Shown: piece after piece, positions 520-16,690 of the stretch
Position numbering within the stretch: the first letter of the stretch is position 1
Layout of the letters: every line of letters starts with the position of its first letter
Source: an uncultured Clostridia bacterium
Lineage (GTDB): Bacteria; Bacillota; Clostridia; Christensenellales; Borkfalkiaceae
DNA length: 64,000 nucleotides
Assembly: GCA_947588985.1 (NCBI GenBank)
Contig: CANQBG010000004.1
Span: 1,667-65,666 of the forward strand
Direction: 5' to 3'
The notes under the pieces: generated by a model
Told to the model about the DNA's origin: nothing
The model's database searches: none
Seen by the model: the letters and a program-made list of their open reading frames with translations, nothing else
Made by a program: the position numbers and the translations under genes

Positions 520-530
520 TTCGTTCCTCC

Positions 531-1568
531 TTAAAACAGCGAGTTCTCGGAGAACCGCTTAGACGTCGTGTTGGCCACGATGAGCAGCACGAGGTTGATG
601 ACGGAGTTGAAGAGACCCACCGCCGTCGCGTAGCCGGCGCGGACGCCGCGAATACCTTGCTGGTAGACGTACGTCGCGATGATCTCGCTCACGTTGATGT
701 TGCCGTCCGTCTGCATGAGGAGCACCTTTTCATAGCCGACGCCCATGAGCCCGCCGATGGACATGATGAGCATGACCGAAATGATGGGCATGATCGCGGG
801 GAGATCGACATGGAGCACGCGCTGGAAGCGGGAGGCGCCGTCGATCTGGGCCGCCTCATGTTGCGCCACGTCGACGCCCGAGAGCGCCGCGAGGTAGATG
901 ATGGAGCTCCAACCGAAATCCTGCCAGTTGCTCGAGAGGATGTACATCGGGCGGAAGGCTCCCTCCGACAGGAAGAAGGAGAACCGTTTGCCGCCCACCC
1001 CCGCAATGACGTTGTTCACGAGCCCGTATTGCCCGAAGAAGAGATAGAGCATCCCGACGAGGACGACGAGCGAGATGAAGTGCGGCCCGTTGAACACCGT
1101 CTGCAAGAACTTCGCGAGTTTCTTGTTCTTCGTCGTGTGCAACATGAGTGCCACGATGATGGGGAGCGGGAAGCCGATGATGAATCCGAGAATACACAGA
1201 AGGAAGGTATTCTTGATGAGCGGCCAGAACATCGCGTCCCCGAAGAATTCCTTGAAGTTCTGGAAGCCGATCCAGACCGTGCTCGGCCCGATGATCTCTT
1301 TCCCGGGAATGTAGTCCTGAAAGGCGATCAACACGCCGTACATCGGGATGTAGGCAAAGATGAACGTTACGACGACCGCGGGAATCAGGAAGAGCAGGTA
1401 GCTCCAGTTCCGCTTGAAGTTCCGCGCAAAATAGCTCCCCTTGAACTTCTCCCAAAGCGACGGCTTCTCGCTTTGACTTTGCATCCCGGAGGCGCCCGTC
1501 TCGGCCGGACGGGCTTGATCCGCTTCGGCCGCTTCCGCGCTTTCCGTCTGCAAAAGCTGAGTTTCCAT
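531..1568 (-). CDS. sugar/polysaccharide ABC transporter permease, LplB-like
   Basis: ORF 531..1682 trimmed to Met39 (METQLLQ), which has GGAGG upstream. It is a multi-TM MalF-type permease with the EAA-loop signature HEAAQIDGASRFQ. Confidence 0.85.
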   Translation of the reverse strand: METQLLQTESAEAAEADQARPAETGASGMQSQSEKPSLWEKFKGSYFARNFKRNWSYLLFLIPAVVVTFIFAYIPMYGVLIAFQDYIPGKEIIGPSTVWIGFQNFKEFFGDAMFWPLIKNTFLLCILGFIIGFPLPIIVALMLHTTKNKKLAKFLQTVFNGPHFISLVVLVGMLYLFFGQYGLVNNVIAGVGGKRFSFFLSEGAFRPMYILSSNWQDFGWSSIIYLAALSGVDVAQHEAAQIDGASRFQRVLHVDLPAIMPIISVMLIMSIGGLMGVGYEKVLLMQTDGNINVSEIIATYVYQQGIRGVRAGYATAVGLFNSVINLVLLIVANTTSKRFSENSLF

Positions 1569-1805
1569 AAAATTTACCTCCTTGTCACAATTCCGAAAGA
1601 GTGCCCTTCGAACGATTCCTATTATAATTTCTCCCCTATTTCCGTCAAGAGGGCCGAAATATTTTGTCAGAAAATTGTGCATTTGCCCAAATTACCCCAT
1701 TTTATTTGTGCAAAACCCGAAAAAATATTGGCGATTCCCTTGACTTTCTTTCAACTTGTGGTATAATAAAAACAAAAAAACCGTCCTCAGACGATTCGAA
1801 CGAAC

Positions 1806-2828
1806 ATGAAAAGAGAGAGAATCACAATTCAGGATATTGCAGACTCACTCGGTCTCTCCCGCAACACCGTCTCCAAGGCCTTAAACGGACAATACGTCCC
1901 GCCGCGCACGCGCGAGCTGGTATTGTCCGCCGCCATCGACCTCGGCTATAAAAGTTATCATGCCGTTGCGGATCAGAGTACGGATAGCACCCCCCCCCGC
2001 ATTGTCTTGATCGCCTCCAAGCTGCTCATGACGATGTCGTTTTTCGTGCACGTCGTGCGGGGGATCGAGGCCGCCCTCACCGAACAGGAGAATGTGGAAC
2101 TTCTGCAATTCACCGTTGCCAAGACTTCCTATTTTAACCGGCTCGTGGAATTCCTCCACGAGAACAAGGTAGACGGCATCATCTGCATGGAGCTCTTCCA
2201 TGCGGACTACGTCCCCAAGCTCATCGAGCTGGGCTACCCCACCGTCTTTTTCGACTTCCCCATCTACGTCTCCGCGACGGGCAATTACGACGTCGTGCTC
2301 GCGGAAAGTTTCTCGTCCGTCAAAAATTATTGTCTCTCGCTCATCGGCAATCAGGATTGCAGGAACTTCGGCTTCGTGGGGGATTACACCCACTGCACCT
2401 CCTTCTACGAGCGCTTCCTCGCTATGCGGGAGGCCATCTTCCTCGCGGGGCTCCCCTACGATCCGCGCTACTCCGTCATCGAAAAGGACTCCTTCCCCTA
2501 TGGGAACGCGCGCGAGCTCGCCGCCCTCTTTGCCGCGATGCCCGCCCTGCCCGATTGCTTTGTGGCCGCCAACGACACGATCGCCATCGGCGTCATCGAG
2601 GCCTTGAAGCTCCTGCATAAAAAAGTCCCCCGCGACGTCTTGGTCGTCGGGTTCGACAACCTCGCGGAGGCCAAATCGCACGACCCGCAGATCACGACCT
2701 TCAACGTCGATAAAACGGGGATCGGCAGAAAACTTCTCGCCGTCCTCTTGGACCGCATCCGCAATCCGCGCCAAAAGACGCAGACCATCTATCTCCAATC
2801 CAAGCTCATCATCCGTCAGACGACGTAA
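1806..2828 (+). CDS. LacI family transcriptional regulator
   Basis: N-terminal HTH ITIQDIADSLGLSRNTVSKALNG followed by a periplasmic-binding-protein-like sugar-binding fold. Divergent from the sugar ABC genes. Confidence 0.9.
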   Translation: MKRERITIQDIADSLGLSRNTVSKALNGQYVPPRTRELVLSAAIDLGYKSYHAVADQSTDSTPPRIVLIASKLLMTMSFFVHVVRGIEAALTEQENVELLQFTVAKTSYFNRLVEFLHENKVDGIICMELFHADYVPKLIELGYPTVFFDFPIYVSATGNYDVVLAESFSSVKNYCLSLIGNQDCRNFGFVGDYTHCTSFYERFLAMREAIFLAGLPYDPRYSVIEKDSFPYGNARELAALFAAMPALPDCFVAANDTIAIGVIEALKLLHKKVPRDVLVVGFDNLAEAKSHDPQITTFNVDKTGIGRKLLAVLLDRIRNPRQKTQTIYLQSKLIIRQTT

Positions 2829-2863
2829 AAGGCCGTAAATCTATTGGAAAAGGACATATAAAA

Positions 2864-2896
2864 AAGGGGGGAGCGCAGAGCTCTTCCCTTGTTTTA
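2864..2896 (+). terminator. putative rho-independent terminator after the LacI gene
   Basis: Stem AAGGGGGGAGC / GCTCTTCCCTT (11 bp including two G-U pairs), loop GCAGA, followed by GTTTTAT. Confidence 0.4.
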
Positions 2897-2971
2897 TGCC
2901 GAATTTTTATGGTATTGGAGCGAAAACGGGGCACCCATGTCTGAAACGGAGGCCCGCGTAAGCCTTCCCGG

Positions 2972-3436
2972 TCATTCCGGATATGTAAAGCGCTTTTCCG
3001 TAAGTTCCGTGAGATATTTGCCGATATAATACTTCGCGAGCGGGAGATTCTGATCCAAGTAGTTGCCGCATTCCTCCGCCGTGGCGCCCGGGATCTCCCC
3101 CTCGTAGTCGAGGATGAAATCGCACATCTCCGAGACGAGCCCGCAGAGTTCGGAGGGGGTGAGCTGGCCGAACATCACGAGGTAGAAGCCCGTGCGGCAG
3201 CCCATCGGGCCGAAGTAGATGACGTCGCTCTTCTTCCGGGAGTTCCGCAAAAAGGTCGCGCCCAAATGCTCGATGGTGTGCACCGCCGCCATGTCCATCG
3301 GCGGTTCGCGGTTAGGGGCCGTCATGCGGAGGTCGAACGTCGTTACGACGGTGAGCAGCTTCCTGTCGTAGCGCGAGACGTAGAGGCCGGGCAGCAGGCG
3401 GGTGTGATCGATCTGAAAGCTCGCGATCTTATTCAT
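2972..3436 (-). CDS. luxS: S-ribosylhomocysteine lyase
   Basis: 154 aa with the HTIEHL metal-binding motif and GPMGCRTGFY, both typical of LuxS. Confidence 0.93.
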   Translation of the reverse strand: MNKIASFQIDHTRLLPGLYVSRYDRKLLTVVTTFDLRMTAPNREPPMDMAAVHTIEHLGATFLRNSRKKSDVIYFGPMGCRTGFYLVMFGQLTPSELCGLVSEMCDFILDYEGEIPGATAEECGNYLDQNLPLAKYYIGKYLTELTEKRFTYPE

Positions 3437-4463
3437 CTCCCTTCTCCTTGAAGGCGGGGTTCTCCTCGCCCTTCTCCTGCGGCATCAAAAATTCCACCCC
3501 TTCCGACTTGAATCCGAGGCCGTGCACTTCGGAGACGACGGAGATCGTGATGAAGGCGTGCGGGTCGATCTTCTCCACCTCGCGCTTGAGCGAGACGAGC
3601 TGGCGGTGCGAGATGACGGTGAGGAGCATGTGGCAATTTTGCTTGAGATAGCCCGTCTGACCATATAGGATCGTGACGCCGCGGCTGATCTTGTGCAGGA
3701 TCATGTCGCGGATCTCGAGATAGGATTCGCTGATGATCTTCACCTGCGTCCGCCGCATGCCGATGGGCGAGACTTTGGCGACGACGAGGGAGGTGATGAG
3801 GGTAAGCATGATGCCGTAAAAGATGTTGGCGAGCCCCACCGTCTGCATGAAGTTGGGCACCGTGAATTCGAGCGCGATGATGATCCCATCGAGGATCCAC
3901 AGCGAGACGGAGACGGGGGTGCCGAAGTATTTTTGGAAGATGAGCGGCGGGATATCCGTGCCGCCCGTGGAGGCCCCCACCCGCACCACGATGCCGAGGC
4001 CGAGCCCGAAGATGAGCCCGCCCATCACGGCGCAAAGCATGGGATTTTGCAGCGATTGCCCGAGCGTCACGCCGCCGTTGGCCGACGCATAGAGGCCGTC
4101 GAGATAGGTATATAAGCTCATGAAGGCGGGGTAGAGGAGGGTGCCCGCGAGCGTCCCCGCGGCGAACTTCTTCCCGAGCGTGATAACCCCGATGATGAAG
4201 AGGATGATGTTGGCAACGTAGACGACGATATTCACGATCCAACGGCCCATCTCCGCGTCTACACTCGCGCCGAAGAGGTTTTTAACGTAGATCCCAAGGC
4301 CCGTAGAGCCCCCCATGGCGAAGCCGAGCGGCTCCACAAAGAAGGCCGTAGCCGCAGCCGCGATCGCGTTTCCGAAGAAGATGATCAGGCTGTTTAGGAG
4401 AAACCGCTGAACTTGCCGCTTGGTCGGCCGCTTCAGCGAATGTTTGTGAGGATGCGCTTTCAT
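3429..4463 (-). CDS. YitT family membrane protein (YitT N-domain + DUF2179-like C-domain)
   Basis: Multi-TM N-terminal half with a soluble C-terminal domain (LLTVISHRQLVSLKREVEKIDPHAFITISVVSEVHG). Overlaps the luxS start by 8 nt. Confidence 0.8.
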   Translation of the reverse strand: MKAHPHKHSLKRPTKRQVQRFLLNSLIIFFGNAIAAAATAFFVEPLGFAMGGSTGLGIYVKNLFGASVDAEMGRWIVNIVVYVANIILFIIGVITLGKKFAAGTLAGTLLYPAFMSLYTYLDGLYASANGGVTLGQSLQNPMLCAVMGGLIFGLGLGIVVRVGASTGGTDIPPLIFQKYFGTPVSVSLWILDGIIIALEFTVPNFMQTVGLANIFYGIMLTLITSLVVAKVSPIGMRRTQVKIISESYLEIRDMILHKISRGVTILYGQTGYLKQNCHMLLTVISHRQLVSLKREVEKIDPHAFITISVVSEVHGLGFKSEGVEFLMPQEKGEENPAFKEKGDE

Positions 4464-4486
4464 AAGTTACCTTCCTTTTCCCCGCT

Positions 4487-4515
4487 ATTATACCATTCCG
4501 CCGCCGATTTGGCAA
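4487..4515 (-). promoter_or_regulatory. sigma-A type promoter upstream of the YitT-family gene
   Basis: On the minus strand: TTGCCA, a 17-nt spacer, then TATAAT, ending about 24 nt upstream of the ATG at 4463. Confidence 0.45.
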
Positions 4516-4707
4516 CCACTTTCAAAAATTTTTTTTGCGCTCGCAACCAGCCCCTTCGCCCGCGCTCAAGGAAACGGAATCGGGGCGTCTTAATTTTATC
4601 CGTACTGTTAAGGTACTCGCATAATAACTTTTTCTGAAATCCCGGATGTGACATTCCTGGTCGCTGTTGGATCGTTCATCGTCTTGCTCCCAGCGATTGG
4701 CAGCCTG

Positions 4708-7563
4708 CTACCTTTCCCTTCGTCCTCGTAAATAATGCCATTTTTTATCATAATCGTTATGCAACGGGTAAAATGGCTTACATAGTTTCTTGATCTCAAA
4801 GCGCTTCTCCGCCTTTAGCTTCCCAAAGCCATGTTGGTTCGCTGATTTTTTTTGAGGCGCGGAATCACTCGGCTTAGGTATCGGTTTCTGCATATTTCCC
4901 CTAAGCTTACTTCCTCTTTGCCGCCAGAAACCTGGGCGGGGACTTCCCCATACGACAGGACAATTTCCATTCGCCTCCCGGTTTTTCACATTCCAAGCCT
5001 TCCCCCAGCAACTAGGCTCTTCGGGTGCTTCACAGTAAATCGTCAAACTGTTACAACCCCAGAACGCCTGTGTCCCTATCGAGGTCACGCTATCCGGAAT
5101 GGTAATGGAGGTCAAATCGCTATAACCATAGAACGCATATTCGCCAATCGAGACTACGCTATCGGGAATCATACTATTCCTACAACCTAAAATCAAGGCT
5201 TTCGAACGCTTTTCAATTAAGCAATCGTTTTCACTTCGATAGACGGCATTCCCCTTCGCCACTTCAATATAATCGAGTCCATTGCACTCAAAAAACGCCC
5301 GCTTCCCAATCAAAGTCACGCTTTCCGGAATGACAATGCCCGTAAGCCCGCTGCAGCCCCTGAACGCATCGCCCCCGATCGAAGTGATGCCCTCGGGAAT
5401 AACAATGCCCGCGAGCCCACTGCAACCCCTAAACGCATCCTGCCCAATCGTAGTCACGCCAAGGGGGATCACGCTGGTATTGCAACCCAAAATCAAGGTC
5501 TTAGAACGTCTTTTGATCAAGCAATTGTTTTCACTCCGATAGACGGCATTCCCCTTCGCCACTTCAATATACTCGAGTCCATTGCACCCAAAAAACGCCC
5601 GCTTCCCAATCGAATTCACACTGTCGGGAATGACGACTTGCTTGAGCCAACCGCAATCCAAAAAAGCCTTATCCCCAATTGAAGTCACGCCGAGAGGAAT
5701 TTGAACCTTCGCCGCTTTCCCTATGTACCGTTTTAAGATAGTCCCTTCTATTTGGAATTCTGGCTTATCATCAAGAGTAGGCGTGATCTCTGGTGCGGGT
5801 TGCGGTGCGGGCTTTTGTTGCGGTTTGGGTTCAGGTGCGGACTGCGACACGGGTTGCCGCGTTTCGGAAAAAGTTCTTCCTCCGCACTCCATACAAACTT
5901 TTGCGTGTTTCGGATTCTCCTGCCCGCAAAAAAGACAAAACTTAGTGGACGCAAATTGCTCCTCTAAAATAGCAATCCTTTGCCGTAGCTTTTCTATTTC
6001 TCTTTTCTGTGCCTCATTCTTTTCTCGTTCAAGTTCAAGCGCATCTTTATCGCGATCGCTCTTTCTGTTTGCCCACTCCAATGCATCAACAAGCGTTGTC
6101 CCGGGAGCCGGACATTTTGCACTGTTGCAAAACATTGCGTCAAGCAAATACGATTTCCCGCATATGGGACAATATTTCAACCCGCTCTCTACGTATTCCC
6201 CGGCATTTTTGACCGCATTCGCCACGCCCTGCAAAATCTCTTTTACGGGTTCCGCTCGGTCCCATTCTTCATACTTTCCATCCAGATCGTCTTCTAATTC
6301 AATGACTGTATCCTTGTAAACGACAATGATACGATCAAATGGATTTTTCCCTCTCTTTTCGCAAAATTTACAAAACCGGTTGATTTCATTTTCGACCCAA
6401 GGCGTTTTACGATATTCCTCCTTGCTGCACACAAGGAGCATGATTTTCACCCTTGAAAGCGCATAATGGATGAGGGACTCATATTCGATTGTTCCCTGCT
6501 TCGCACGTTGCTCTTTGCAATCCACATCGGAGAAGAAGGGATTTACACCAAGTTTTTTCAGCCCTTCATATACTTGCTGTTCCTTGATCCACTCGTAATC
6601 ATCGGTATAGGGCCCGTCTTTATACTCCGACACTTTCGTGCAGATGAAGCAATCATAAGAAAGACCCTTGTCACGGTACTCGCAGATATGCTTCCGGCTA
6701 CTTTTAAGTTTTTTAACAAATCCTCTGAATACGCTTTTTTGTTCATCCGAGGCATTGTCAAGCGCTTCACGATAAGAACCGTGATTTTCAAATAAATCCA
6801 TATTGTAATCAAACAATATGAACCGTTCGGCATTGGCTACATCATCCCAAATCAACTGGATCTTCCACTCCGCCAAGGCCATCCCAAAATAGGCGTCTGC
6901 CGACATGCCGCCCGTAGCGGCTTTCGTGGCTTCGTTGAAGCGCTCTTTGGCGAGTTCAAACTCTGCCGCTTGCAGTGCACGATATCCCAACAACAAGTTC
7001 CGTTCGCAATAGTCCTCTTCCCGTTGGTCCCTTTTGGCCTCGCGTTCGATGATCCGCCCTAAATCTCGCTGAACTTCATCCAATCTCCTATCCAAAGCGC
7101 TGTAGTACTGTTCCGCTAAATAGTTTGCCTTTTGCTGCAATGCCTGCATACTTTCCAGCAAACTCTTGTCTTCCGATAGCTTTTCGGTGAGTTGCGCGAT
7201 AAAACTCTTGAATAGCACCGCTTGGCCGCTCTGCAGGTCCTCGAATCTCTTTTGGACGGCTGCCTCGATCCGCTCCTCGCTTTGGGATTGCGCATCTTTT
7301 ATATTGCAAACATACTCGATAAATTTGCTCTCGACAAGTGCGCCGACTTGCTTTGCCACATCTTCGGTGACGGCATGCCTCTGCGCCCTTATTTCTCGCG
7401 TGAGCTGTTCGGTGAGTCGTTCGGTCTGTTTATCGAGATAATCCTCTACGGCCTTTTCGTCGAGACCTGTGGAAATTACAATATCCCTTGCTCTGATTTT
7501 GCCCGTATTGATTAAAGAGTTTTCGCCGGTATTACTTACGCTGCCTGCTTCTTTCCGCGCCAT
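4708..7563 (-). CDS. TIR-domain protein with coiled-coil/TPR-like N-region, two zinc ribbons, Pro-rich linker and BspA-type leucine-rich repeats
   Basis: The TIR-like core spans aa ~302-425 (SYDCFICTKVSEY...TPWVENEINRF, resembling the SxWCxxEL catalytic-Glu motif). Zinc ribbons are CPICGK..CNSAKC and CLFCGQ..CMECG. The Pro-rich linker reads PEPKPQQKPAPQPAP. About 23-aa repeats follow (IPDSVTSIGxxAFxGCSxLTxI) and end in LTIYCEA...PVVWG. GGAG RBS. Confidence 0.8.
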   Translation of the reverse strand: MARKEAGSVSNTGENSLINTGKIRARDIVISTGLDEKAVEDYLDKQTERLTEQLTREIRAQRHAVTEDVAKQVGALVESKFIEYVCNIKDAQSQSEERIEAAVQKRFEDLQSGQAVLFKSFIAQLTEKLSEDKSLLESMQALQQKANYLAEQYYSALDRRLDEVQRDLGRIIEREAKRDQREEDYCERNLLLGYRALQAAEFELAKERFNEATKAATGGMSADAYFGMALAEWKIQLIWDDVANAERFILFDYNMDLFENHGSYREALDNASDEQKSVFRGFVKKLKSSRKHICEYRDKGLSYDCFICTKVSEYKDGPYTDDYEWIKEQQVYEGLKKLGVNPFFSDVDCKEQRAKQGTIEYESLIHYALSRVKIMLLVCSKEEYRKTPWVENEINRFCKFCEKRGKNPFDRIIVVYKDTVIELEDDLDGKYEEWDRAEPVKEILQGVANAVKNAGEYVESGLKYCPICGKSYLLDAMFCNSAKCPAPGTTLVDALEWANRKSDRDKDALELEREKNEAQKREIEKLRQRIAILEEQFASTKFCLFCGQENPKHAKVCMECGGRTFSETRQPVSQSAPEPKPQQKPAPQPAPEITPTLDDKPEFQIEGTILKRYIGKAAKVQIPLGVTSIGDKAFLDCGWLKQVVIPDSVNSIGKRAFFGCNGLEYIEVAKGNAVYRSENNCLIKRRSKTLILGCNTSVIPLGVTTIGQDAFRGCSGLAGIVIPEGITSIGGDAFRGCSGLTGIVIPESVTLIGKRAFFECNGLDYIEVAKGNAVYRSENDCLIEKRSKALILGCRNSMIPDSVVSIGEYAFYGYSDLTSITIPDSVTSIGTQAFWGCNSLTIYCEAPEEPSCWGKAWNVKNREANGNCPVVWGSPRPGFWRQRGSKLRGNMQKPIPKPSDSAPQKKSANQHGFGKLKAEKRFEIKKLCKPFYPLHNDYDKKWHYLRGRRER

Positions 7564-7583
7564 TTTCGCGTCTCCTGATATTT

Positions 7584-8219
7584 TTACTTATCGGTGGTTT
7601 TGAAGAGCTCTTCTATATTTATTGTAATATTTTTTGCTTGAATTTTTCCCGTATTGTTAAAAGATCCCTTGCCGGTATTATTGATATCACCAGAGCCTTC
7701 ATAGTACTTCCTTATAACCTCCGTGTTTCCGGCGCTTATATTTGCTTCGTTGAGTTTATCATCGCAATATTCATAGATAAAGAAAATCAAGCCGAAGGAA
7801 CAATCGCAAACGCCTATAACATTACACCATACCGCCGGAATATACTCAAGTGCACTTAAAATTCCCAAAGCAAGCACCGCCCCCGTTACGACGGCGAGAA
7901 TAACGATTACCCAAACGGCCCTCTTTTTTTTGCTCGCCCGCATTGAACCGAGCGCTTCATCTTTGACTTGTTTCCGCACGTCTTCCAATTGCTTCTTCAG
8001 TTCAGCATGCAGACTCTCCAAATAGGAATCTGCATTTTCTATTCTTGATTCCCGATACAGATAATTATCTATGAGGCCAAACGCCTTTTCGGCCTTTTTT
8101 AACCTATTTTCAGGCAAACAATCGATAAGTTCGCAACTTTCATCAATCAAAAATTTACCTAATTCGTCCACTTTTGGCTTCAACTCGCCAAGTTTTTTCG
8201 TCATTTCTGTTTTTATCAT
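7584..8219 (-). CDS. small membrane protein (helical N-domain, TM hairpin, C-terminal NTGK motif)
   Basis: 211 aa with an AAGGAG RBS. Two hydrophobic helices (AVWVIVILAVVTGAVLALGILSAL, VIGVCDCSFGLIFFIYEY). I recognise no family. Confidence 0.65.
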   Translation of the reverse strand: MIKTEMTKKLGELKPKVDELGKFLIDESCELIDCLPENRLKKAEKAFGLIDNYLYRESRIENADSYLESLHAELKKQLEDVRKQVKDEALGSMRASKKKRAVWVIVILAVVTGAVLALGILSALEYIPAVWCNVIGVCDCSFGLIFFIYEYCDDKLNEANISAGNTEVIRKYYEGSGDINNTGKGSFNNTGKIQAKNITINIEELFKTTDK

Positions 8220-8270
8220 GATGGCTTTCTCCTTTTTTATAAACCACGCGCGTTGGCATAGGATTCATGC

Positions 8271-9782
8271 TCATTCATGCTTCAAATAGTTGATCGCTTT
8301 TTCAGTAAGACTTCTGCCGCGGCCGGTGACGATAATAAATCCAATCCTAATAAGATACGGTTCGTATTCGGAGAGGTACTTCTTGGGGTCCAATCCAATA
8401 CGGGCAGCAAGCGTATCGGCGCCGATCGCACCGCTCATATCCTCTGCGATTGCGTTCAGGATCTCCAAATCCTTCTTTTCAAGGCCGATCTCATTGATGC
8501 CCTTTTCTTCAAAATACCGCTTCACGACGTCGAGATCGATGCTCGTTGAAACGCGCTGGCCCTTATCGTCGTAGAGTGCCGTATCCAACCCGTCCACAAA
8601 AGAATTGACATAGCGAATAGACCCGCGGCTACGGGGAATACAAGCGTCTATTGCTTCGTCGGTAATGGTAAGGCCCTTCGATGCTACTTTGTTCTTATAA
8701 ATGCGTTTCAGCTCATCGGGCGTATAGTCCACCATCTGGAACTTCAATCTGAGGCATCTGTCTTTTATGGTATTGAGGACCTTATCATCGTCGGTGGTTG
8801 CCGCGATAAAGGTGAAGTTGTCGATCGGAATGCGTTTCACCACGCCGTTTATGTCGGGCGGCGAGACATACACGCGACTGTTGAGCAACGTTAAAAGGCT
8901 CGATTGCAGCTCGTCCGTCAACATATGTATTTCGTCAAAGGCGATCACGACGGGTTCGTTCTCCCTTGCGACCTTCATCAAGAAATTCTGCAAGGCCTTC
9001 AGGGATTGCTGGCTGTTGCGATATTGCGAACAGTCCATCCACTCATACCGAACGCCGAGCGCCTTTGCGATAAGTTCCATGAGCGTGGATTTCCCAAGCC
9101 CGGGATTGCCGAAAAGCAGGATGTTATCGAGATACTTCCTTCCCTGCGCTTTGGCAATGGCGATTTCTTTTAACAAAGGTTTGACGATATGCTGCTGACC
9201 GATAAATCCCTCCAATGTATCCGGAGAGAACAACGGCTCATCTTTTCCTCCGCCGTCAACTTCTTCTCCCTCCGAAGCGGGCACAACGGGTGCGACGGGG
9301 GCATCAACTTTCGGCTCGTCGTCCTGCCCCTTTATGATCGGCTCCACGGGGATAAGCGGCTCCGCGGGTTCGGAAATAATGGGCGAAGGCTTGACGTCGG
9401 GCTCTTGCGGTCCTACAATGCCGTCTATATTCACGCCGCCGCTTGGAATCGACGGTCCTTGAGGGGGCAAAGCGCGTCCGCCCCCGCCCAAGATATCCCC
9501 GAAGGAAGGGATATCCGTGTCTGCAATCAGCCCGAAGAACTTTTGGACACGCCTGTCCTGCAGGCCGTTTTTGCGGATGATTTCTATGTAACTTCCGAAA
9601 ACATCCTGCCAATGGGATAGCTTTGCCTTGATAACGATGGGATCGCCGTTGTTGAGCGAATATTGCCCGGCAAACAGCTTGTACAGCTCTAAGAGCCCTT
9701 GCAACGTGGCCTCTTGATCGTTTGCCCGCGCGGCATGCAATGCCGCTCTGTACTTCTCACGAAATAAATCTGCAAATGTCAT
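8271..9782 (-). CDS. RuvB-like AAA+ ATPase with N-terminal MIT-like helical domain and Pro-rich linker
   Basis: FIGQQHIVKPL, Walker A GNPGLGKST, Walker B VVIAFDEIHML, and FTFIAATTDD...IKDRC. The C-terminal winged helix YEPYLIRIGFIIVTGRGRSLTEKAINYL closely matches the RuvB C-terminus (EPYLIQxGFxxRTPRGR). The first ~175 aa are extra relative to RuvB. Confidence 0.8.
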   Translation of the reverse strand: MTFADLFREKYRAALHAARANDQEATLQGLLELYKLFAGQYSLNNGDPIVIKAKLSHWQDVFGSYIEIIRKNGLQDRRVQKFFGLIADTDIPSFGDILGGGGRALPPQGPSIPSGGVNIDGIVGPQEPDVKPSPIISEPAEPLIPVEPIIKGQDDEPKVDAPVAPVVPASEGEEVDGGGKDEPLFSPDTLEGFIGQQHIVKPLLKEIAIAKAQGRKYLDNILLFGNPGLGKSTLMELIAKALGVRYEWMDCSQYRNSQQSLKALQNFLMKVARENEPVVIAFDEIHMLTDELQSSLLTLLNSRVYVSPPDINGVVKRIPIDNFTFIAATTDDDKVLNTIKDRCLRLKFQMVDYTPDELKRIYKNKVASKGLTITDEAIDACIPRSRGSIRYVNSFVDGLDTALYDDKGQRVSTSIDLDVVKRYFEEKGINEIGLEKKDLEILNAIAEDMSGAIGADTLAARIGLDPKKYLSEYEPYLIRIGFIIVTGRGRSLTEKAINYLKHE

Positions 9783-9808: not shown

Positions 9809-12406
9809 TTAAGATTTTTCTTTATATCCCCAAACCACGGGCCGGCCCGAGTTCCAATCGTTGTCCCATCCCTTCGGCTGTTCTTTTGCTTCACAATAAA
9901 TCGTCAAGTTGCTGCAACCATCGAACGCCCAACTCCCAATTGAAGTCACGCTGTCGGGAATGGTAATGGAAGTCAACCCGCTGCAACCATCGAACGCCCA
10001 ACTCCCAATCGAGGTCACGCCGTCGGGAATGGTAATGGAAGTCAATCCACTACAACCGCTGAACGCATTCCAGCTAATCGAAGTCACGCTGTTAGGGATG
10101 GTAATGGAAGTCAATCCGCCACAACCATAGAGCGCATAACTTTCAATCGAGGTCACGCCGAGAGGAATCTTGATATTCTTACAACCCAAAATCAAGGCAT
10201 TCGAATCCCTTTCAATGATACAATTTCCTTCACTACGATAGACAGCATTCCCCTCCGCTACTTCAATATGTTCGAGTCCAATACATCCGCGAAACGCATA
10301 ATTCCCAATCGATGTCACGCCGTCGGGAATGGTAATGGAAGTCAATCCACTACAATCCTCGAACGCATAACTTCCAATCGATGTCACACTGTCCGGAATG
10401 GTAATGGAGGGCAACCCGCTGCAATCCTGGAACGCATCATTCCCAATCGATGTCACACTGTCCGGAATGGTAATTGAGGTCAAAGCACTACAATTATAGA
10501 ACGCAGAATTCCCAATTGAGGTGCCTCCTGTGATGATGACTTCTTTCAGCGATGCCGGAACAAATCTATAGTTAGAGGAATTATACTCTGCGCCGAAAAT
10601 GTAGCCGAAATGCGTATTTTCGGAACCCTCGTTCGAAGCGCCCACAAACGGAATCGTGATCCTCACAAGCGAACTACAATCCTCGAACACACCGCCTCCA
10701 ATCGAGGTCACGCTATCGGGAATAAATACCGATTGTAGGCGTAATGAATCAACGTCTTTTCCCCGACCGACGGCTGTAACAGGCTCCCCGCGGTATTCAG
10801 AAGGAATCTCCAAGTATTCCGTCATTTTGTTGCAAATAACGTAAGTATATGTTCCGTCCGCATTTTCCGTGTAATAATCCAACTTTACGAAATTCGGGAA
10901 GGTGCTCACCCCCCCTGTCATGATTGCATAGACAAAAAATAAGCTACCCGAGCAAACAAGGAGAAAACGCGGTATGCATTTTCCTTTATGCTTTATAAGC
11001 CCCCATATTATGAGCCCTAAATACGCAACAAGTGCAATAACAAATCCTAAAATTATCCACCACTTCCAATCGCCCACCGCTTGATAGACAAAAATCCATT
11101 CTGATAAAAAAATTCCGACATCAACTGAGGCCGCGCCTTGCCAATCGACGCCAAACCCTTCGAAATTTGGGTTTTTACTAACAAAGGATAGCACTATCCA
11201 CAATGCGGCTAACCCCAAAACAGCCAAGCAATTTAGCCCGTAAATGATCGTGAACAACCAACCCGTATAATCATCAAACGACTTAACAGGAAGATAAAAA
11301 TCCAAAATCATAACCGCAATGGAGAGGGCAATCGGAAGAATCAGTACAGTATATATTCCGATTTGTTGTAAAACCGGAATGGCACGTTTAAGACGTTCAC
11401 GGCGTTTTTCTTTCCTTTTTTGCCTATGTAGTTTTTTGTCATCGCTTTCCGCGACGGAAATTTCTATGGCTCTTAAGCGCTTTTCCTTCTCCTCGCTCAA
11501 ATATTCGTCGTATTGAGTTTTATATTCTCTGTAATCATCATCTATTAGAGTACCGCTTTGTCCCCTGTATCTCTCAATCGCTTCAATATATTTTTTGATT
11601 TCTGACCCGCGAAATTTCGTGAAATTTTTTGAGGCAATTCGCAAAAGTCCGACATAACCGTTTGCATCCTTCGGGTTGGAATCAAGCGCCTTGTTGAAAA
11701 TTTGCTTGGCCTTTCGCAAGGCGTTCTTTTTCCGAGGATGCGCCGGAGCGCCGCACAATCTTATTGCTTCTTTGATCTCTTTTTCGTATTCTTCTTCGGG
11801 AGTGATAAGACTTTTGGCTTCAGCAATGGAAATGCCGTAGGTACTATGAAATTTCTTCTTTTGTACCCAGTTGCAAATTCCGGCAACGGCGGCAACTACA
11901 AGAGTAACGATCTCCGCTCCACCTGTACAATAAAAGCCGATTCCATCGTAATCCATCCCAAAATACATCGCGACGGGACTAAGCAAAAGTATAAATATCG
12001 CGGATATGATTGCCGTCCACTTTGAAATGGTTTCTCCGTCGATTGCCTTTTGGGCGGCGTCTCCATTCCGCTTCAAACACTCCCTGATCTCCCGCAAATG
12101 CTCCATCTCGCGATCATGCCATGTTTGGACCTCGGCGCATATCGCGGCAAACCTGTTGTCTACTGTTCTTTCTTTGCCATCTTTGTTTTCTCCTCTCAGC
12201 GTATCGAATCTGAGAAACGACTCTAATTCGGTTTTATCCGTCAGACCTTCCAAACTGCTTAATCCTTCAAGCGTACAATCGTTAAATCCGCGAAGGAGCG
12301 CCTCTATACGATCGTAATATTTTTCGTATATTTGAGGATAGTCGGACTTCCACCTACTATCCTTAAGCATCTGCAAAAATTTTCCTGCCTTAATTGCGTT
12401 CTTCAT
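9809..12406 (-). CDS. polytopic membrane protein with C-terminal BspA-type leucine-rich repeat domain
   Basis: 865 aa. A helical N-domain is followed by a TM hairpin (aa ~130-180), a basic coiled coil and about 6 further TM helices (aa ~345-520). About 13 LRR units follow (ITIPDSVTSIGSWAFDGCSGLTS), ending in LTIYCEAKEQP...PVVWG. Confidence 0.8.
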   Translation of the reverse strand: MKNAIKAGKFLQMLKDSRWKSDYPQIYEKYYDRIEALLRGFNDCTLEGLSSLEGLTDKTELESFLRFDTLRGENKDGKERTVDNRFAAICAEVQTWHDREMEHLREIRECLKRNGDAAQKAIDGETISKWTAIISAIFILLLSPVAMYFGMDYDGIGFYCTGGAEIVTLVVAAVAGICNWVQKKKFHSTYGISIAEAKSLITPEEEYEKEIKEAIRLCGAPAHPRKKNALRKAKQIFNKALDSNPKDANGYVGLLRIASKNFTKFRGSEIKKYIEAIERYRGQSGTLIDDDYREYKTQYDEYLSEEKEKRLRAIEISVAESDDKKLHRQKRKEKRRERLKRAIPVLQQIGIYTVLILPIALSIAVMILDFYLPVKSFDDYTGWLFTIIYGLNCLAVLGLAALWIVLSFVSKNPNFEGFGVDWQGAASVDVGIFLSEWIFVYQAVGDWKWWIILGFVIALVAYLGLIIWGLIKHKGKCIPRFLLVCSGSLFFVYAIMTGGVSTFPNFVKLDYYTENADGTYTYVICNKMTEYLEIPSEYRGEPVTAVGRGKDVDSLRLQSVFIPDSVTSIGGGVFEDCSSLVRITIPFVGASNEGSENTHFGYIFGAEYNSSNYRFVPASLKEVIITGGTSIGNSAFYNCSALTSITIPDSVTSIGNDAFQDCSGLPSITIPDSVTSIGSYAFEDCSGLTSITIPDGVTSIGNYAFRGCIGLEHIEVAEGNAVYRSEGNCIIERDSNALILGCKNIKIPLGVTSIESYALYGCGGLTSITIPNSVTSISWNAFSGCSGLTSITIPDGVTSIGSWAFDGCSGLTSITIPDSVTSIGSWAFDGCSNLTIYCEAKEQPKGWDNDWNSGRPVVWGYKEKS

Positions 12407-12426: not shown

Positions 12427-13449
12427 TCACAATTCGATATCATTGCTTTCGCACCACTTCTTGAGCAGTTCCTCAATCGCATCCATCGGCGTGGCGTTGG
12501 CATAGCCTTCGGCAGAAACGTTGTTCACGGCGACGGTCTTTGATTTGTTGATACCGATACACTCGCCCAGCCTGTTGAGGACGGGCCCGCCCGAATCGCC
12601 CGGATTGGACGGCGCGGTATAGACCAAATTCCCCTCGTCGTTTTGTGTGAAGCGAACAACGCCCGCAAAGGGAGCAAGGCCCATCCCGAAGGCATTGCCG
12701 ATTACAAGGCAATCCGCGCCTTGCAACACCTGCGAATAATCGGGTACGCGCTTTATAACTGTAAATTCACCCACCTCGGCGGGATCAAAGCTGCAAAGCG
12801 CAACATCCGCTTTCTTGTCGGAGAACAAAATATTTATCTTATAGCTCTTTTTCTCCCCCAAAAAGGACATTTTTGCTTTCGGATAATAGCATTGCGTTTT
12901 CTCATTGAACACAACATGGTCGTTGGTAAGGAGATATCCGTTTTTAGAAATAATGAAGCCCGTCCCTGTCGCGCCGACGCGAGAATCGGAAACAGAGATT
13001 GCAACAACGGATCGCTTGCTTTTTTCAAACAGCTCGGCACACCAACCTTGCGTTTTGGCGGATTCGTCTATCAGTCCCGCGATATCAATTTCATCGCTCG
13101 GCGGGGAAGGTTGCGCAGGTTGATCGGCGCTCGACGGTTTTTTGGGTTCCTGCTCAGCAGGCTTTTTCACCACTTTCGGCAAATTTTGTTCTTGTTTTGT
13201 CGGAAGCCCGAAACATTTCAAAACAAAATCGGTGATGCCCTTTGTCCGAAGCTCTTTTGATACCGCGATCCATTTATCTAAAAAAGCCTGCGTCTTTGCT
13301 TTGATGAGAATGGTTTTCGCCTGATTATATGTTTCAACCGCATAATTCAAAATGGCGAGAACATATGCTCTCGCCGCTTTGGGGTTATTTTGTTTGATAA
13401 GCTCCCTTGCGTTCGAGTAGTAGGTAGCTATCTTATCCCGATCGTTCAC
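12427..13449 (-). CDS. trypsin-like serine protease (S1/HtrA-like core, no PDZ) with N-terminal MIT-like helical domain
   Basis: GTG start directly after the upstream stop, with AAGGAG 8 nt upstream. Catalytic triad context: LTNDHVV, ADVALC, GDSGGPV. The N-terminal ~85 aa helical domain is followed by a Pro/Lys-rich linker. Confidence 0.8.
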   Translation of the reverse strand: MNDRDKIATYYSNARELIKQNNPKAARAYVLAILNYAVETYNQAKTILIKAKTQAFLDKWIAVSKELRTKGITDFVLKCFGLPTKQEQNLPKVVKKPAEQEPKKPSSADQPAQPSPPSDEIDIAGLIDESAKTQGWCAELFEKSKRSVVAISVSDSRVGATGTGFIISKNGYLLTNDHVVFNEKTQCYYPKAKMSFLGEKKSYKINILFSDKKADVALCSFDPAEVGEFTVIKRVPDYSQVLQGADCLVIGNAFGMGLAPFAGVVRFTQNDEGNLVYTAPSNPGDSGGPVLNRLGECIGINKSKTVAVNNVSAEGYANATPMDAIEELLKKWCESNDIEL

Positions 13450-14643
13450 TCATTTGCTCCTTTTAAGTCTCAAAAGTAACTCCTCGTAGGATATTCCCAT
13501 ATCATACGCCTTAAATCTCAACAACATCTCGTTCGTTACGCCGTTGATATAGTATTTAATTACCTTGTCGCAATCTGCAAGAGTTATCATCTCGCCTTGC
13601 TCGCGCCCCTTCTTCATAATGTTAAGAATTTCGCGCCTTAAAGGTTCATTCGCGATTTGCTTCATGATCGCCCTGATATCGGCACCCGCATATCCTTCTA
13701 ACCTTTGCGCGAGATATTCGACAGTGACGTCCGGCGCATGGGGCAAGTGAGCGAGGTCAAGTGCAACAAATTTTTCTCGGGCATCCGCATCGGGAAGCGG
13801 AACGTAAATTTGCGTTTCGAACCTTCCGCCCCGTTTGAGTGCGGGATCGAGTTTCCACGGCAAATTCGTTGCCGCTACAATGATCCGAAGTTGATTGGGC
13901 TTTTGGGTTTTCATAAAGCCGTCCATGCAAGTCAACATGGTGGTCAGTATGGATTTTGTATGCCTCGAATCATCGCTGCTCCGATCTGAACAGATACTAT
14001 CGATTTCGTCGAGAAAGATGATGCATCTGTCAAGCTCTGCCGCCTGCGCAAAGATGTCCCGCATATTCTTTTCGGCAACACCTACGACGCTTGCCAAAAC
14101 TTCGCTTGTTTGGACAACGGCTATCTTGCAGTTCAATGCCCCTGCAAGACACTTTACGATGTGCGTCTTCCCTGTCCCGGGAGGCCCGTATAACAGGATT
14201 TGCGTTCCGAGTTGATTCCCTCTGAACTTATGATACACAGTCTGGAATTCGGGCCTCAAGGGAGCGACGACGTCCACCATAAAGGCATCCTTGACTTCTT
14301 GGACGCCGATGATGTTCGTAAAATTAAGTTTCGGCACTTCGTCCGAAAACCACTTCCTCTCGGAATAATAGGGGTCAACGCCACCTTCCCCGTCACTCGA
14401 ACAAGCAACGGAGAGAGGCGGCTGCTTTGCGTAGCGAACAAGGTGACTGATTACGACGGAACATTGTTTGCGATAGGCATCTTTTGTCGTCGTGCTTACG
14501 TTTGGATTGGAACATTGCTCCATGGCCATATGAAGCATTTCGGCGCCAACCTCACAAATGGCATCTATGTCTCCTGCAGCCACTGCTTCATTAAAGGTGC
14601 CTATCTTACTATTGAAGACACTAATCATGCTCGCTTCTGCCAT
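13450..14643 (-). CDS. Vps4/CdvC-like meiotic-clade AAA+ ATPase with N-terminal helical (MIT-like) domain
   Basis: Walker A LLYGPPGTGKT and Walker B IIFLDEIDS. AATNLPWKLDPALKRGGRFETQIYVPLPD matches my recollection of Vps4 (ATNIPWQLDxAxRRRFExRIYIPLPD). The lid reads LEGYAGADIRAI. Single AAA cassette, 397 aa. Confidence 0.75.
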   Translation of the reverse strand: MAEASMISVFNSKIGTFNEAVAAGDIDAICEVGAEMLHMAMEQCSNPNVSTTTKDAYRKQCSVVISHLVRYAKQPPLSVACSSDGEGGVDPYYSERKWFSDEVPKLNFTNIIGVQEVKDAFMVDVVAPLRPEFQTVYHKFRGNQLGTQILLYGPPGTGKTHIVKCLAGALNCKIAVVQTSEVLASVVGVAEKNMRDIFAQAAELDRCIIFLDEIDSICSDRSSDDSRHTKSILTTMLTCMDGFMKTQKPNQLRIIVAATNLPWKLDPALKRGGRFETQIYVPLPDADAREKFVALDLAHLPHAPDVTVEYLAQRLEGYAGADIRAIMKQIANEPLRREILNIMKKGREQGEMITLADCDKVIKYYINGVTNEMLLRFKAYDMGISYEELLLRLKRSK

Positions 14644-14657
14644 AATTGTATGTTACC

Positions 14658-15281
14658 TTAGTCCTTTTTTCCGTTCTCTTCGGCAACGATCCCCGCATAG
14701 TCGATGTCGCCGGTTGCGGTTGCGTCTGCGCCTTCAGGCTTAGAAACGGCTTCGGGAGTAATTTTCCCCTTCACGCGCTCTATCATGGCCGCATACTCAG
14801 CTTTGAATTGATCGGATTGCTCAATCTCATCCGCCGTAGTTCCATCCAAACGGCTCGAAATGCTCTCAACCGGCTTGGGATCGAGAATTTCATTCAGCTT
14901 TGCAAGTTCCGCTTCGGATTTGTTGATGTCTTTGAAAATTGCCGTGATGCTCTTCCCAAGTTTGGTAAAATCGGGCGATTCTGCCAACAGGCCTTTGCAA
15001 CCCGCAATTGCCGCAGGGAGTTTCCCGAGTTCCGAAATCGCCAGTGCCGTGTATGCCCCGAGTTCAATGTTGCTCTTGAGCGTTTTGAGTTGTTCGATAA
15101 GCGCATATACGCGAATCTTCTGCTTGATCAGTTGTTTGGCTCTCGCATCGTCGCTACGCAATGCGGCTTCGTCGATATAGACATCATACTTTGCTCCAAA
15201 CTTTTGAAGATTGCGAACGGACTTATCGAGTGCATCCAATGCCGCAATGATTTTTTGGTCATTTGTTTGTTTCTTAGCCAT
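14658..15281 (-). CDS. Snf7/ESCRT-III-like helical protein (candidate)
   Basis: 207 aa with a basic N-terminus (MAKKQTNDQK) and predicted long helices (ARAKQLIKQKIRVYALIEQLKTLKSNIELGAYTA; ISELGKLPAAIAGCKGLL; FTKLGKSITAIFKDINKSEAELAKLNEIL). The tail is acidic. Size, charge polarity and helix pattern resemble CdvB/Snf7. It lies immediately upstream of the Vps4-like gene. Assignment is by eye only. Confidence 0.5.
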   Translation of the reverse strand: MAKKQTNDQKIIAALDALDKSVRNLQKFGAKYDVYIDEAALRSDDARAKQLIKQKIRVYALIEQLKTLKSNIELGAYTALAISELGKLPAAIAGCKGLLAESPDFTKLGKSITAIFKDINKSEAELAKLNEILDPKPVESISSRLDGTTADEIEQSDQFKAEYAAMIERVKGKITPEAVSKPEGADATATGDIDYAGIVAEENGKKD

Positions 15282-15332
15282 AATATTTATCTCCTTATTA
15301 TTTTTTTACATATTTGAATCCAATCTGCCGGT

Positions 15333-15809
15333 CTACTTCCTGTCTGGAATTGCCGCTTCCGCGGCACGAATCAATTCTTCGATTGCCTCACTTTCCATCT
15401 CGTCGCAAAGCTCGCGCACCAGTTCGATCCCCATTTTTTTTAATTCGGGCAAATGCCGCATGTCCTTTGCCGCCATCATTAAAGCGCCTTCATGGATGGC
15501 TTTCCAAACCTTTTTATAATCGCCCGAACGGATAGCCATTTGTGCTGCACCGATTGCCGCATTGAAAATGTCGATTATGGCGGAAAATTTTTCGATGTTC
15601 TGCCGGGCCGTCATATCATCTGCTGCTTCTCTTGCGGCCTTTAGTCGGAGACTATACAAATTGACGATATCTTCCAAGAGATAAAATTCAACAAAAGCCT
15701 CCCTGTCGATGAGCGAAACCCGTATCTGCTGATATATCGGACTTTTTTTCAACATGCAATTTGCCTGTACAACACGTGCTCTATGCGAGCGAATTATGCT
15801 TTTCGCCAT
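15333..15809 (-). CDS. hypothetical helical protein, paralogue B (conserved C-terminal tail IRAAEAAIPDRK)
   Basis: ORF 15333..15887 trimmed to Met27 (MAKSIIRSH). Clearly paralogous to the upstream gene (IDREAFVEFYLLEDIV, NIEKFSAII.IFNAAIGAA, SGDYKKVWKAIHEGALM). Confidence 0.7.
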   Translation of the reverse strand: MAKSIIRSHRARVVQANCMLKKSPIYQQIRVSLIDREAFVEFYLLEDIVNLYSLRLKAAREAADDMTARQNIEKFSAIIDIFNAAIGAAQMAIRSGDYKKVWKAIHEGALMMAAKDMRHLPELKKMGIELVRELCDEMESEAIEELIRAAEAAIPDRK

Positions 15810-15825
15810 AAAATCCGTCTCGGTT

Positions 15826-16440
15826 TTAGGTATTCGGATCCATTCTGCTGGTCTTCTTCCTGTCGGGAATCGCCGCTTCCGCGGCACGGATCACTTCTTC
15901 GATTTCATCCATGGTAGGAGGAAGATCTTTTACCCTGCGCACGTTTTCCTCATGCGCATCCAAATCGTCCAAATCTTCATCCAATTCATGACTAATGTCT
16001 ACCGCAGTCATCATGTCTTCGGACAGCTCACGCAACAGCTCTATTGCTAAGCTCTTTAATTCGGGCAAATTTTTGACACTACTCGCCGCCGCCATCAAAG
16101 CGCCTTCATGGATGGCTTTCCAAACCTTTTTATAATCGCCCGAATTGATAGCTGATCTCGCTGCCCCGATTGCCGCGTTGAAAATGTTGATGATGGCAGA
16201 AAATTTTTCGATATTCTGCTTCCTGCCTTTTTCATCGGCGCGGCCCTGAGGGACATATGCCTTTTCTTCTCCCAGGCGGATATTGTATAACTTAACAATA
16301 TCCTCCAATAAGTAAAACTCGACAAAAGCCTCTCGGTCGATGATTGAAATACGCTCTCTACTAAATTTCGGATGTTTTTTCAGCGTTTCATTTGCCTGCT
16401 TCACCCGAGCCATGTGTGAACGGATTGTTTTTTCTCCCAT
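15826..16440 (-). CDS. hypothetical helical protein, paralogue A (acidic C-region plus tail IRAAEAAIPDRK)
   Basis: 204 aa with a GGAGG RBS. First gene downstream of a consensus promoter. Basic N-terminus and an acidic C-terminal third (ELDEDLDDLDAHEE). Confidence 0.7.
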   Translation of the reverse strand: MGEKTIRSHMARVKQANETLKKHPKFSRERISIIDREAFVEFYLLEDIVKLYNIRLGEEKAYVPQGRADEKGRKQNIEKFSAIINIFNAAIGAARSAINSGDYKKVWKAIHEGALMAAASSVKNLPELKSLAIELLRELSEDMMTAVDISHELDEDLDDLDAHEENVRRVKDLPPTMDEIEEVIRAAEAAIPDRKKTSRMDPNT

Positions 16441-16543: not shown

Positions 16544-16572
16544 TCTGTTTATCATTATAAACCGTTTCCTTA
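16544..16572 (-). promoter_or_regulatory. consensus sigma-A promoter of the ESCRT-like operon
   Basis: On the minus strand: TTGACA, a 17-nt spacer (TAATTAAGGAAACGGTT), then TATAAT, about 100 nt upstream of the ATG at 16440. Confidence 0.6.
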
Positions 16573-16690
16573 ATTATGTCAACTGTTATCCGCTATATTT
16601 CCCTCAAAAAGCCGAAAAAATCTTCTCTTTCGTCCATTTCCGCATCCCTCCTTGTTTGATGTCATTATAATCCATCCTGATTGCAAGTTA

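Follow-up and report, generated by a model that had tools for sequence, protein, structure and literature searches.

The stretch of DNA analysed here, referred to as the window, comprises 64,000 nucleotides of contig CANQBG010000004.1 from an uncultured Clostridia bacterium of the Borkfalkiaceae (assembly GCA_947588985.1). It contains two tandem, co-directional genes, paralogues A and B, whose family is labelled X and whose C-terminal tail is the main subject of this work; these two genes and the other features given below with window coordinates lie on the minus strand. Paralogue A, the long form of family X, is an open reading frame (ORF) at 15826-16440 that encodes 204 residues behind a strong GGAGG ribosome-binding site. 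Paralogue B, the short form, extends from an ATG at 15809 to a TAG at 15333-15335 (15333-15809) and encodes 158 residues, not the 159 given in an earlier sequence-only reading of this DNA. A longer, GTG-started ORF of 184 residues that overlaps the 3' end of A is an alternative for B, and the ATG start has been adopted because the second-copy homologues begin at that ATG position. B starts 16 nucleotides past the stop codon of A, and its ribosome-binding site is weak. BLASTP aligns A with B at 54% identity (E-value 7e-67), and all three sequence blocks quoted in the sequence-only reading are found in the pair, so that its proposal of paralogy is borne out. The sole large gap between the two proteins is a 32-residue deletion in B, which takes out the acidic linker of A.

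Paralogue A consists of four parts. Residues 1-144 (16009-16440) form a compact helical-bundle core in an AlphaFold2 (AF2) model, with a predicted local distance difference test score (pLDDT) above 90 over most of its length and with pairs of co-varying positions. Residues 145-175 (15916-16008) form an acidic, partly disordered linker, deleted in the short paralogue. Residues 176-195 (15856-15915) contain the conserved amphipathic tail helix, IEEVIRAAEAAIPDRK, identified by homologue conservation and by the AF2 model, and residues 196-204 (15829-15855) are a basic stretch with a PNT end, a terminal motif that is conserved even in remote members. The C-terminal element is bipartite, an amphipathic helix (I-E-E-V-I-R-A-A-E-x-A-I-P-D) being followed by a basic stretch that ends in P-N-(T/I/L). 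The part common to A and B reads I-E-E-(V/L)-I-R-A-A-E-A-A-I-P-D-R-K, and in B it corresponds to SEAIEELIRAAEAAIPDRK at 15336-15392. Both proteins had been thought to end in this shared tail; the tail is indeed in both and B stops right behind it, but A continues for nine more residues, KTSRMDPNT. The acidic stretch noticed before the tail of A is present as described and is conserved among the long forms as the block L-D-E-D-L-D-D-L-D-A-H-E-x-N-V-R, and the net charge of the linker has a family-wide median of -5. The overall layout of a basic head, an acidic C-terminal region and an amphipathic tail is likewise confirmed, by the isoelectric points (pI) of 9.8 for A residues 1-100 and 4.6 for residues 101-204, by the linker, and by the tail helix of the AF2 model. 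The 30 N-terminal residues have a median net charge of +5 and contain a basic helix with an invariant S-H..R, and the tail of A ranks with the most amphipathic of the protein's 16-residue windows.

The likeness of the two genes at the DNA level is real, with 43 of 50 positions identical between 15341-15390 of B and 15861-15910 of A; the range first given for A (15851-15900) is off by 10 nucleotides and matches at only 9 of 50 positions. Over 87 nucleotides, 15306-15392 and 15826-15912 agree at 72 positions, compared with an average of 22 of 87 for random offsets within the island, and the likeness extends about 27 nucleotides beyond the stop codon of B. There, at 15306-15335, comparison of the A and B DNA shows that the AAG of A is a TAG in B, behind which come, in frame, the remnant TGRLDSNM and a TAA, and therefore B has recently lost the terminal motif of the family. 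The B of this window is unusual in being without the terminal basic/PN(T/I) peptide that is otherwise kept in the family.

X is a previously undescribed, unannotated family of small helical proteins. Neither A nor B matches anything significantly in Pfam, NCBIfam, PADLOC, PHROGs, PDB sequences, the ESM Atlas or BFVD, and literature searches found no paper on the operon or on family X. A word-indexed search returned about 130 relatives, all of them without Pfam domains or informative names, and a HMMER profile search of 1.84 billion representatives returned 89 X clusters (50% identity) at an E-value of 1e-3 or below. An identity as HEPN or FUSC was rejected, the Pfam matches being weak and inconsistent from member to member. 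The hosts are gut Bacillota and Mycoplasmatota; the genome matches are gut metagenome-assembled genomes of Clostridia (many from rabbit, some labelled Christensenella or Coproplasma), Anaeroplasmataceae and Acholeplasmatales. Within the genome of the window, A and B are the only copies of X, and no X homologue was found in 50,697 phage records. The ratio of nonsynonymous to synonymous divergence (dN/dS) of X is 0.04-0.11 among close loci, similar to that of the neighbouring genes, values that are rough, dS being mostly saturated. Judged from these values, the X genes are constrained coding genes, and positive selection on X was rejected on the same ratios. In the 1369-residue protein P0203, a giant leucine-rich repeat (LRR) protein of the BspA type, a helical module some 70 residues long occurs as four repeats and weakly matches positions 54-125 of the X profile (E-value 1e-5); it may be distantly related to the X hairpin, or the match may be a repeat artefact.

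The tail is kept by most homologues, and the docking proposal does not founder on its absence from them: the canonical tail helix pattern is present in 117 of 180 X members, and most members have the helix, then the basic stretch, then a terminal P-N-(T/I/L)(N). Remote members retain an equivalent amphipathic helix and the terminal motif. Two variant types of tail occur, one with a proline within the helix, in the clade of loci L027-L030, and one reading I-E-E-V-L-P-A-T-D (P0099, P0127).

X stands at the head of an operon with the order X, Snf7-like gene, AAA ATPase, trypsin-like protease and RuvB-like ATPase, plus variable LRR proteins. It is placed first because a sigma-70-type promoter, TTGACA-17-TATAAT, with 12 of 12 consensus positions, stands at 16554-16582, about 115 nucleotides upstream of A. 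In the window, the Snf7/ESCRT-III-like neighbour (207 residues) occupies 14658-15281. It is followed at 13450-14643 by an AAA ATPase, assigned by profile and structure-relative comparison to the classical clade, with a family-specific N-terminal head (residues 1-95). The trypsin-like protease lies at 12427-13449 and the RuvB-like AAA+ ATPase, with the same type of head as the protease, at 8271-9782. The sequence-only reading had connected the two X proteins with the Snf7-like gene beside them, and this linkage proves strict: in 23 of the 25 genome loci the Snf7-like gene is directly downstream of X, followed by the AAA ATPase and the trypsin-like protease, with the RuvB-like ATPase further along, usually past variable LRR or transmembrane (TM) genes. 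The order is identical in four further loci (L037-L040), some with X homologues as remote as 27-31% identity, and X is the gene of the operon most tightly linked to the Snf7-like gene. Compared with their counterparts in the window, X proteins are 36-88% identical, Snf7-like proteins 57-91% and the ATPases 66-88%, and therefore X diverges faster than its partners at depth.

The window copy of the operon lies within a low-GC island, and integrases or defence genes adjoin the operon in several loci, with an integrase just upstream in several. In locus L005, positions 1-9233 upstream of the orthologous operon encode an integrase and TIR, SIR2-like and Band-7 proteins, a defence-island setting. 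Two loci contain an X homologue without Snf7-like, AAA or protease genes (L013 at 9977-11762 and L023 at 2903-4243), and their neighbours are unannotated (a TM protein in L013) or housekeeping genes. The core of X, without the tail, is fused in frame to the Snf7-like protein in one allele found in two samples (L033 at 1573-2745 and L034 at 1567-2739); the protease and an LRR protein are retained there, and the fusion locus is followed by a ClpP / VirD4-like operon, which in the window stands upstream of X. In L037, stops and an internal deletion have reduced the trypsin-like protease gene to a pseudogene remnant (11459-11849), beside intact X, Snf7-like, AAA and RuvB-like genes, and this allele is widespread, being indexed in 134 blocks of the collection. 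Locus L031 (10001-13519) is a mosaic, in which the AAA ATPase is 86%, the protease 82%, the Snf7-like protein about 70% and X 36% identical to those of the window; this pattern therefore points to a recombination point between the Snf7-like and AAA genes.

The AF2 model of X, built on the family alignment, has an overall pLDDT of 81.9 and a predicted template-modelling score (pTM) of 0.76. Its helices span residues 9-22 (the basic N-terminal helix), 33-61, 67-99, 103-119 and 122-139; those at 33-61 and 67-99 form a hairpin of 29 and 33 residues, and the segment 103-119 is made of short helices. Behind this core come a disordered acidic segment (145-157), a short helix (160-171) and the tail helix (177-190), the tail block having a pLDDT of 89, and the terminal basic/PN motif is modelled as disordered. 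Co-variation of V49-I84, Y52-I84 and E59-N76 fits the antiparallel hairpin, that of I86-L139, F87-A132 and I48-L131 fits the packing of helix 4 on the hairpin, and that of V13-V40 and L20-F39 the packing of the basic N-terminal helix on helix 1.

According to the sequence-only reading, A and B could be polymer subunits or adaptors with tails presented in the manner of ESCRT-III, and a predicted ESCRT-III-like hairpin was to bear this out. A hairpin is present in the model, but the sequence, profile and fold comparisons with ESCRT-III are negative. There is no Pfam Snf7 match for A or B, nor for 39 X members even at an E-value of up to 5, and hhalign gives a probability of 0.5% for homology of X with the neighbouring Snf7-like family. 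A Foldseek search of the PDB with the X model gave no match at an E-value of 1e-3 or below, the best template-modelling score being about 0.35, and no ESCRT-III protein among the 50 matches listed. The Snf7-like neighbour served as a positive control: its AF2 model (pLDDT 66.7) is all-helical, with nothing resembling a winged-helix domain, and Foldseek places Sulfolobus islandicus CdvB on top (probability 0.99) with at least 25 ESCRT-III entries in the top 50, including CdvB2 filaments, IST1, CHMP1B, CHMP3, CHMP2A-CHMP3 and Asgard ESCRT-IIIB. Since the control finds ESCRT-III in the identical test, X has a different fold with a similar overall layout. The modelled core of X, of about 145 residues, is therefore described as a compact helical bundle that is not of the ESCRT-III fold. 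Among viral models, the sole hint is UL51 of herpesviruses, described as an ESCRT-III-like protein, which appears four times among the best 50 Foldseek matches, at E-values of 0.5-2.8.

The tail is also off the MIM1 and MIM2 patterns. That it lies outside the strict MIM1 consensus, (D/E)xxLxxRLxxL(K/R), had been conceded from the start and holds throughout the family, none of 180 X members matching the strict pattern or a relaxed hydrophobic/basic one. The proline-rich core of MIM2 (phi-P-x-phi-P, as given in PMC5840170) is matched by 1 of 180. The heads that were expected to read the tail belong to more than one family. None of the four heads (protease, RuvB-like, AAA and TM-LRR) matches Pfam MIT (PF04212) even at an E-value of up to 10; the protease head is homologous to that of the RuvB-like ATPase (hhalign 88.6%, E-value 2.6e-6), and the AAA and TM-LRR heads are each related by hhalign to none of the other three, so that the cassette holds three unrelated kinds of head. 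CDC48 and FtsH models give the AAA ATPase better scores than CdvC does, and the solved structures nearest to it are the D2 domains of VCP/CDC48; by these comparisons the ATPase is nearest to CDC48/VCP and not of the Vps4 clade. The Snf7-like protein has a conserved C-terminal tail of its own behind a disordered stretch, T-G-D-I-D-Y-A-G-I-V-A-E-E-N-K-K-K (TGDIDYAGIVAEENKKK, 14661-14717), which is unlike that of X and matches the pattern of neither MIM1 nor MIM2. Nevertheless, this tail is a more natural candidate than the X tail for a docking motif of the ESCRT-III type.

The duplication that produced A and B, judged from the sequences, is old and has recurred. Between A and B, codons 1-78 and 121-146 have a synonymous divergence (dS) that is saturated or could not be computed; it is low only in codons 79-120 (0.38) and in the tail (0.30). 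In a tree of the family, the short second copies from three loci (the window, L007 and L009) form one clade with several metagenomic proteins (support 91/99), which adjoins the closest long copies, and the second copy of L019 is an independent duplication (support 98/97). A recent whole-gene duplication as the source of the DNA likeness was rejected, dS being low in codons 79-120 and the tail only and the short-copy clade being older. In L007 the paralogue pair is saturated throughout, with a tail dS of 2.8, and the two tails are still 75% identical as protein, which therefore indicates selection at the protein level. On this evidence, the nucleotide likeness of A and B in the window comes from patchy gene conversion in this lineage, with the tail held by selection on the protein. 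Further tandem X pairs occur in the distant loci L039 (2136-3486), L019 (10001-11172) and L028 (10001-11041), and the second copy of L028 is apparently broken.

We tentatively favour a reading in which X, though not an ESCRT-III protein, serves the Snf7-like polymer as an adaptor or regulator and works like CdvA or like an ESCRT-III tail, with its own tail as a tethered docking or latch peptide. The core of X would be the part that binds the Snf7-like protein or polymer, and its tethered, two-part tail may serve as a short linear docking peptide, as a latch peptide, or as both. As a docking peptide, it may bring the AAA ATPase or one of the enzymes that bear heads to the polymer; it may instead, or also, fold back on helix 4 until activation, as the C-termini of ESCRT-III proteins do. 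The short paralogue arose by tandem duplication and loss of the linker. It carries the tail helix on a much shorter tether, in this genome without the terminal motif, and the simplest view is that it would modulate the long form, either as a competitor or as a heteromeric partner. A bolder extension holds that this mobile-island system evolved its own tail-to-head recruitment code, independent of archaeal and eukaryotic MIM-MIT pairs, with X as a new class of ESCRT-III-associated adaptor. The two tails, those of X and of the Snf7-like protein, would then be read by two types of head, that of the AAA ATPase and that of the protease and RuvB-like ATPase, and an X-decorated Snf7-like polymer would gather unfoldase, protease and DNA motor at one site. 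We regard this extension as unlikely.

In favour of the adaptor reading stand the constraint on the family, the linkage to the Snf7-like gene behind the consensus promoter, the fusion, the conservation of the tail, the modelled architecture with its weak co-variation between tail and helix 4, and the charge layout and tail arrangement that X has in common with the Snf7-like protein. A number of observations weigh against it. In L031 the AAA and protease heads are window-like (76% and 87% identical), and the X tail is just 15% identical. In the distant clade L027-L030 the tail helix contains a proline, and all partners are intact. L033 and L034 are without the tail, the AAA ATPase and the RuvB-like ATPase, yet keep the protease, and this fusion locus is possibly a decaying system. 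A variant tail stands beside a protease pseudogene in L037 and beside an intact protease gene in L040. Tail identity shows no significant partial correlation with the identities of the heads, and in 2 of the 25 genome loci X has no Snf7-like neighbour. Moreover, the hint that the tail folds back comes from weak, phylogenetically confounded co-variation, for which mutual information and direct coupling analysis (DCA) name different pairs. Taken at the sequence level, the natural variants argue against tight sequence-specific co-evolution of the tail with either type of head. A link of the tail to the protease was rejected, the tail type being identical in L037, with its protease pseudogene, and in L040, with an intact gene. 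A link to the AAA ATPase was likewise considered, L033 and L034 lacking both; this is not decisive, as it is one allele in two samples that is also without the RuvB-like gene. The C-terminus of the protease, PMDAIEELL, resembles the tail, and this was treated as chance, as it occurs in window-like loci only and belongs to a conserved element of the protease fold.

The alternatives to the adaptor reading are each given a lower weight. The first, that of the sequence-only reading, is that X proteins are after all ESCRT-III-like subunits or adaptors, with MIM-like tails read by MIT-like heads of the AAA, protease and LRR/RuvB-like proteins. The layout of ESCRT-III is matched by the charge asymmetry, the flexible linker and the amphipathic helix at the C-terminus, the small helical heads found on several enzymes need ligands, the UL51 matches point the same way despite their E-values, and human MIT-MIM pairs use many binding modes besides MIM1 and MIM2 (PMC9477494). 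This proposal is nonetheless rather improbable, set against the hhalign and Foldseek comparisons with their positive control, the near absence of MIM1 and MIM2 patterns from the tails, the heads without a Pfam MIT match, of which only those of the protease and the RuvB-like ATPase are mutually related, the standing of the ATPase closer to CDC48/FtsH than to CdvC, and the pairing of conserved heads with an unrelated tail in L031.

The second alternative is that the tail is mainly an intramolecular latch on helix 4 or the 'LPELK' region, so that X stays closed until a trigger or the AAA ATPase releases it, recruitment being secondary or absent. The tail block reaches its pLDDT of 89 in a single-chain model despite the disordered linker that precedes it. 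Among the scored pairs, K129 co-varies with A190 at rank 16 and with I191 at rank 37, and N124/E127 co-vary with T176/I180. In the short paralogue the tail begins about 6 residues past helix 4, where an antiparallel hairpin would put residue 129 beside residue 190. Together, the weak co-variation and the high pLDDT hint that the tail helix can pack on X's own helix 4. Mean-field DCA is noisy at an effective number of sequences of about 125, however, the co-variation is weak and its two methods disagree on the pairs, and a terminal basic/PN motif that is conserved yet modelled as disordered is a better fit to an intermolecular ligand. A role of the tail mainly as a latch is rather improbable as well.

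Less probable still is the third alternative, in which X is a substrate or a degron-bearing inhibitor whose C-terminal arm is an entry site for the CDC48-like unfoldase or, in its K/R-rich stretch, a cleavage site for the trypsin-like protease. Removal of X would then license the Snf7-like protein or effectors, as in an antitoxin-like switch comparable to IetA/IetS. AAA+ unfoldases typically initiate at a disordered linker plus a free C-terminus, and X has both, with a K/R-rich segment between the tail helix and the terminus. The ATPase, of the classical unfoldase clade, matches the PADLOC IetA models at an E-value of 1e-34, the protease gene adjoins, and X is the first gene, with a strong promoter and ribosome-binding site. 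On the other side, no feature ties X specifically to degradation, the fusion locus combines the X core with a protease and no ATPase, and the likeness to IetA is confined to the generic AAA module. Least probable is a role of X in regulating the operon, by binding nucleic acid or at the level of transcription, with a tail for dimerisation or effector sensing unrelated to the ESCRT-like parts, an idea suited by the first-gene position, by the strongly basic N-terminal helix with its invariant S-H..R and by the two loci that have X without the rest of the operon, but opposed by the absence of a helix-turn-helix or other DNA-binding family from the Pfam, NCBIfam and Foldseek results, by co-variation of the basic helix with helix 1 as though packed on the core, and by the near-universal adjacency to the Snf7-like gene and the fusion to it.

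Among known systems, CdvA, encoded in the crenarchaeal cdvABC operon, is the closest functional analogue of X, as judged by analogy. Like CdvA, X is a non-ESCRT-III protein encoded by the first gene, directly upstream of an ESCRT-III homologue and an AAA ATPase, so that the gene order X, Snf7-like, AAA mirrors cdvA, cdvB, cdvC. CdvA consists of an N-terminal beta-rich domain (a PRC barrel) and a helical domain, whereas X is modelled as all-helical, with no sequence similarity to CdvA found and no Pfam match. Both have a short C-terminal element, which in X is conserved; its recruiting role is known for the CdvA peptide and would be a presumed one in X. In CdvA, the C-terminal E3B peptide recruits CdvB by adding a beta-strand that completes the broken winged helix of CdvB (PMC5840170). 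The 207-residue Snf7-like partner of X differs from CdvB in being modelled as all-helical, with no winged helix seen.

The C-terminal tails of ESCRT-III proteins, MIM1, MIM2 and others, which are read by the MIT domains of Vps4, spastin and others, resemble that of X in following a basic N-terminal half and an acidic C-terminal half, and in placing a short conserved amphipathic helix near the C-terminus behind a flexible linker. The differences are that the X core is non-ESCRT-III by profile-profile comparison and by Foldseek with its control, that the tail is off the MIM1 and MIM2 patterns, that the heads have no Pfam MIT signature and that the ATPase falls outside the Vps4 clade by its sequence. 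The Snf7-like neighbour (Pfam PF03357-related) is similar to X in size (about 205 residues), in charge layout (pI 9.5 for its N-terminal half and 4.5 for its C-terminal half), and in having a disordered stretch followed by a conserved C-terminal helix; it differs in lacking detectable homology, in its tail and in diverging more slowly than X. The IetA/IetS systems of PADLOC share with this operon an AAA ATPase beside a serine protease on mobile or defence islands; here, however, X has no PADLOC counterpart, the protease is trypsin-like, and Snf7-like and RuvB-like genes are added.

In reviews, the pairing of a Snf7-type ESCRT-III protein with a dedicated AAA ATPase is treated as an archaeal and eukaryotic feature, and bacterial Snf7 and Vps4-like genes appear only in other contexts of different composition (PMC11237479). 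If X were merely a structural accessory, the present finding would amount to the routine description of a new small family. X carries the one obvious short linear motif that is open to testing, and knowing the partner of its tail would reveal in what way unfoldase, protease and RuvB-like motor come together, and also whether tail-based recruitment arose independently here.

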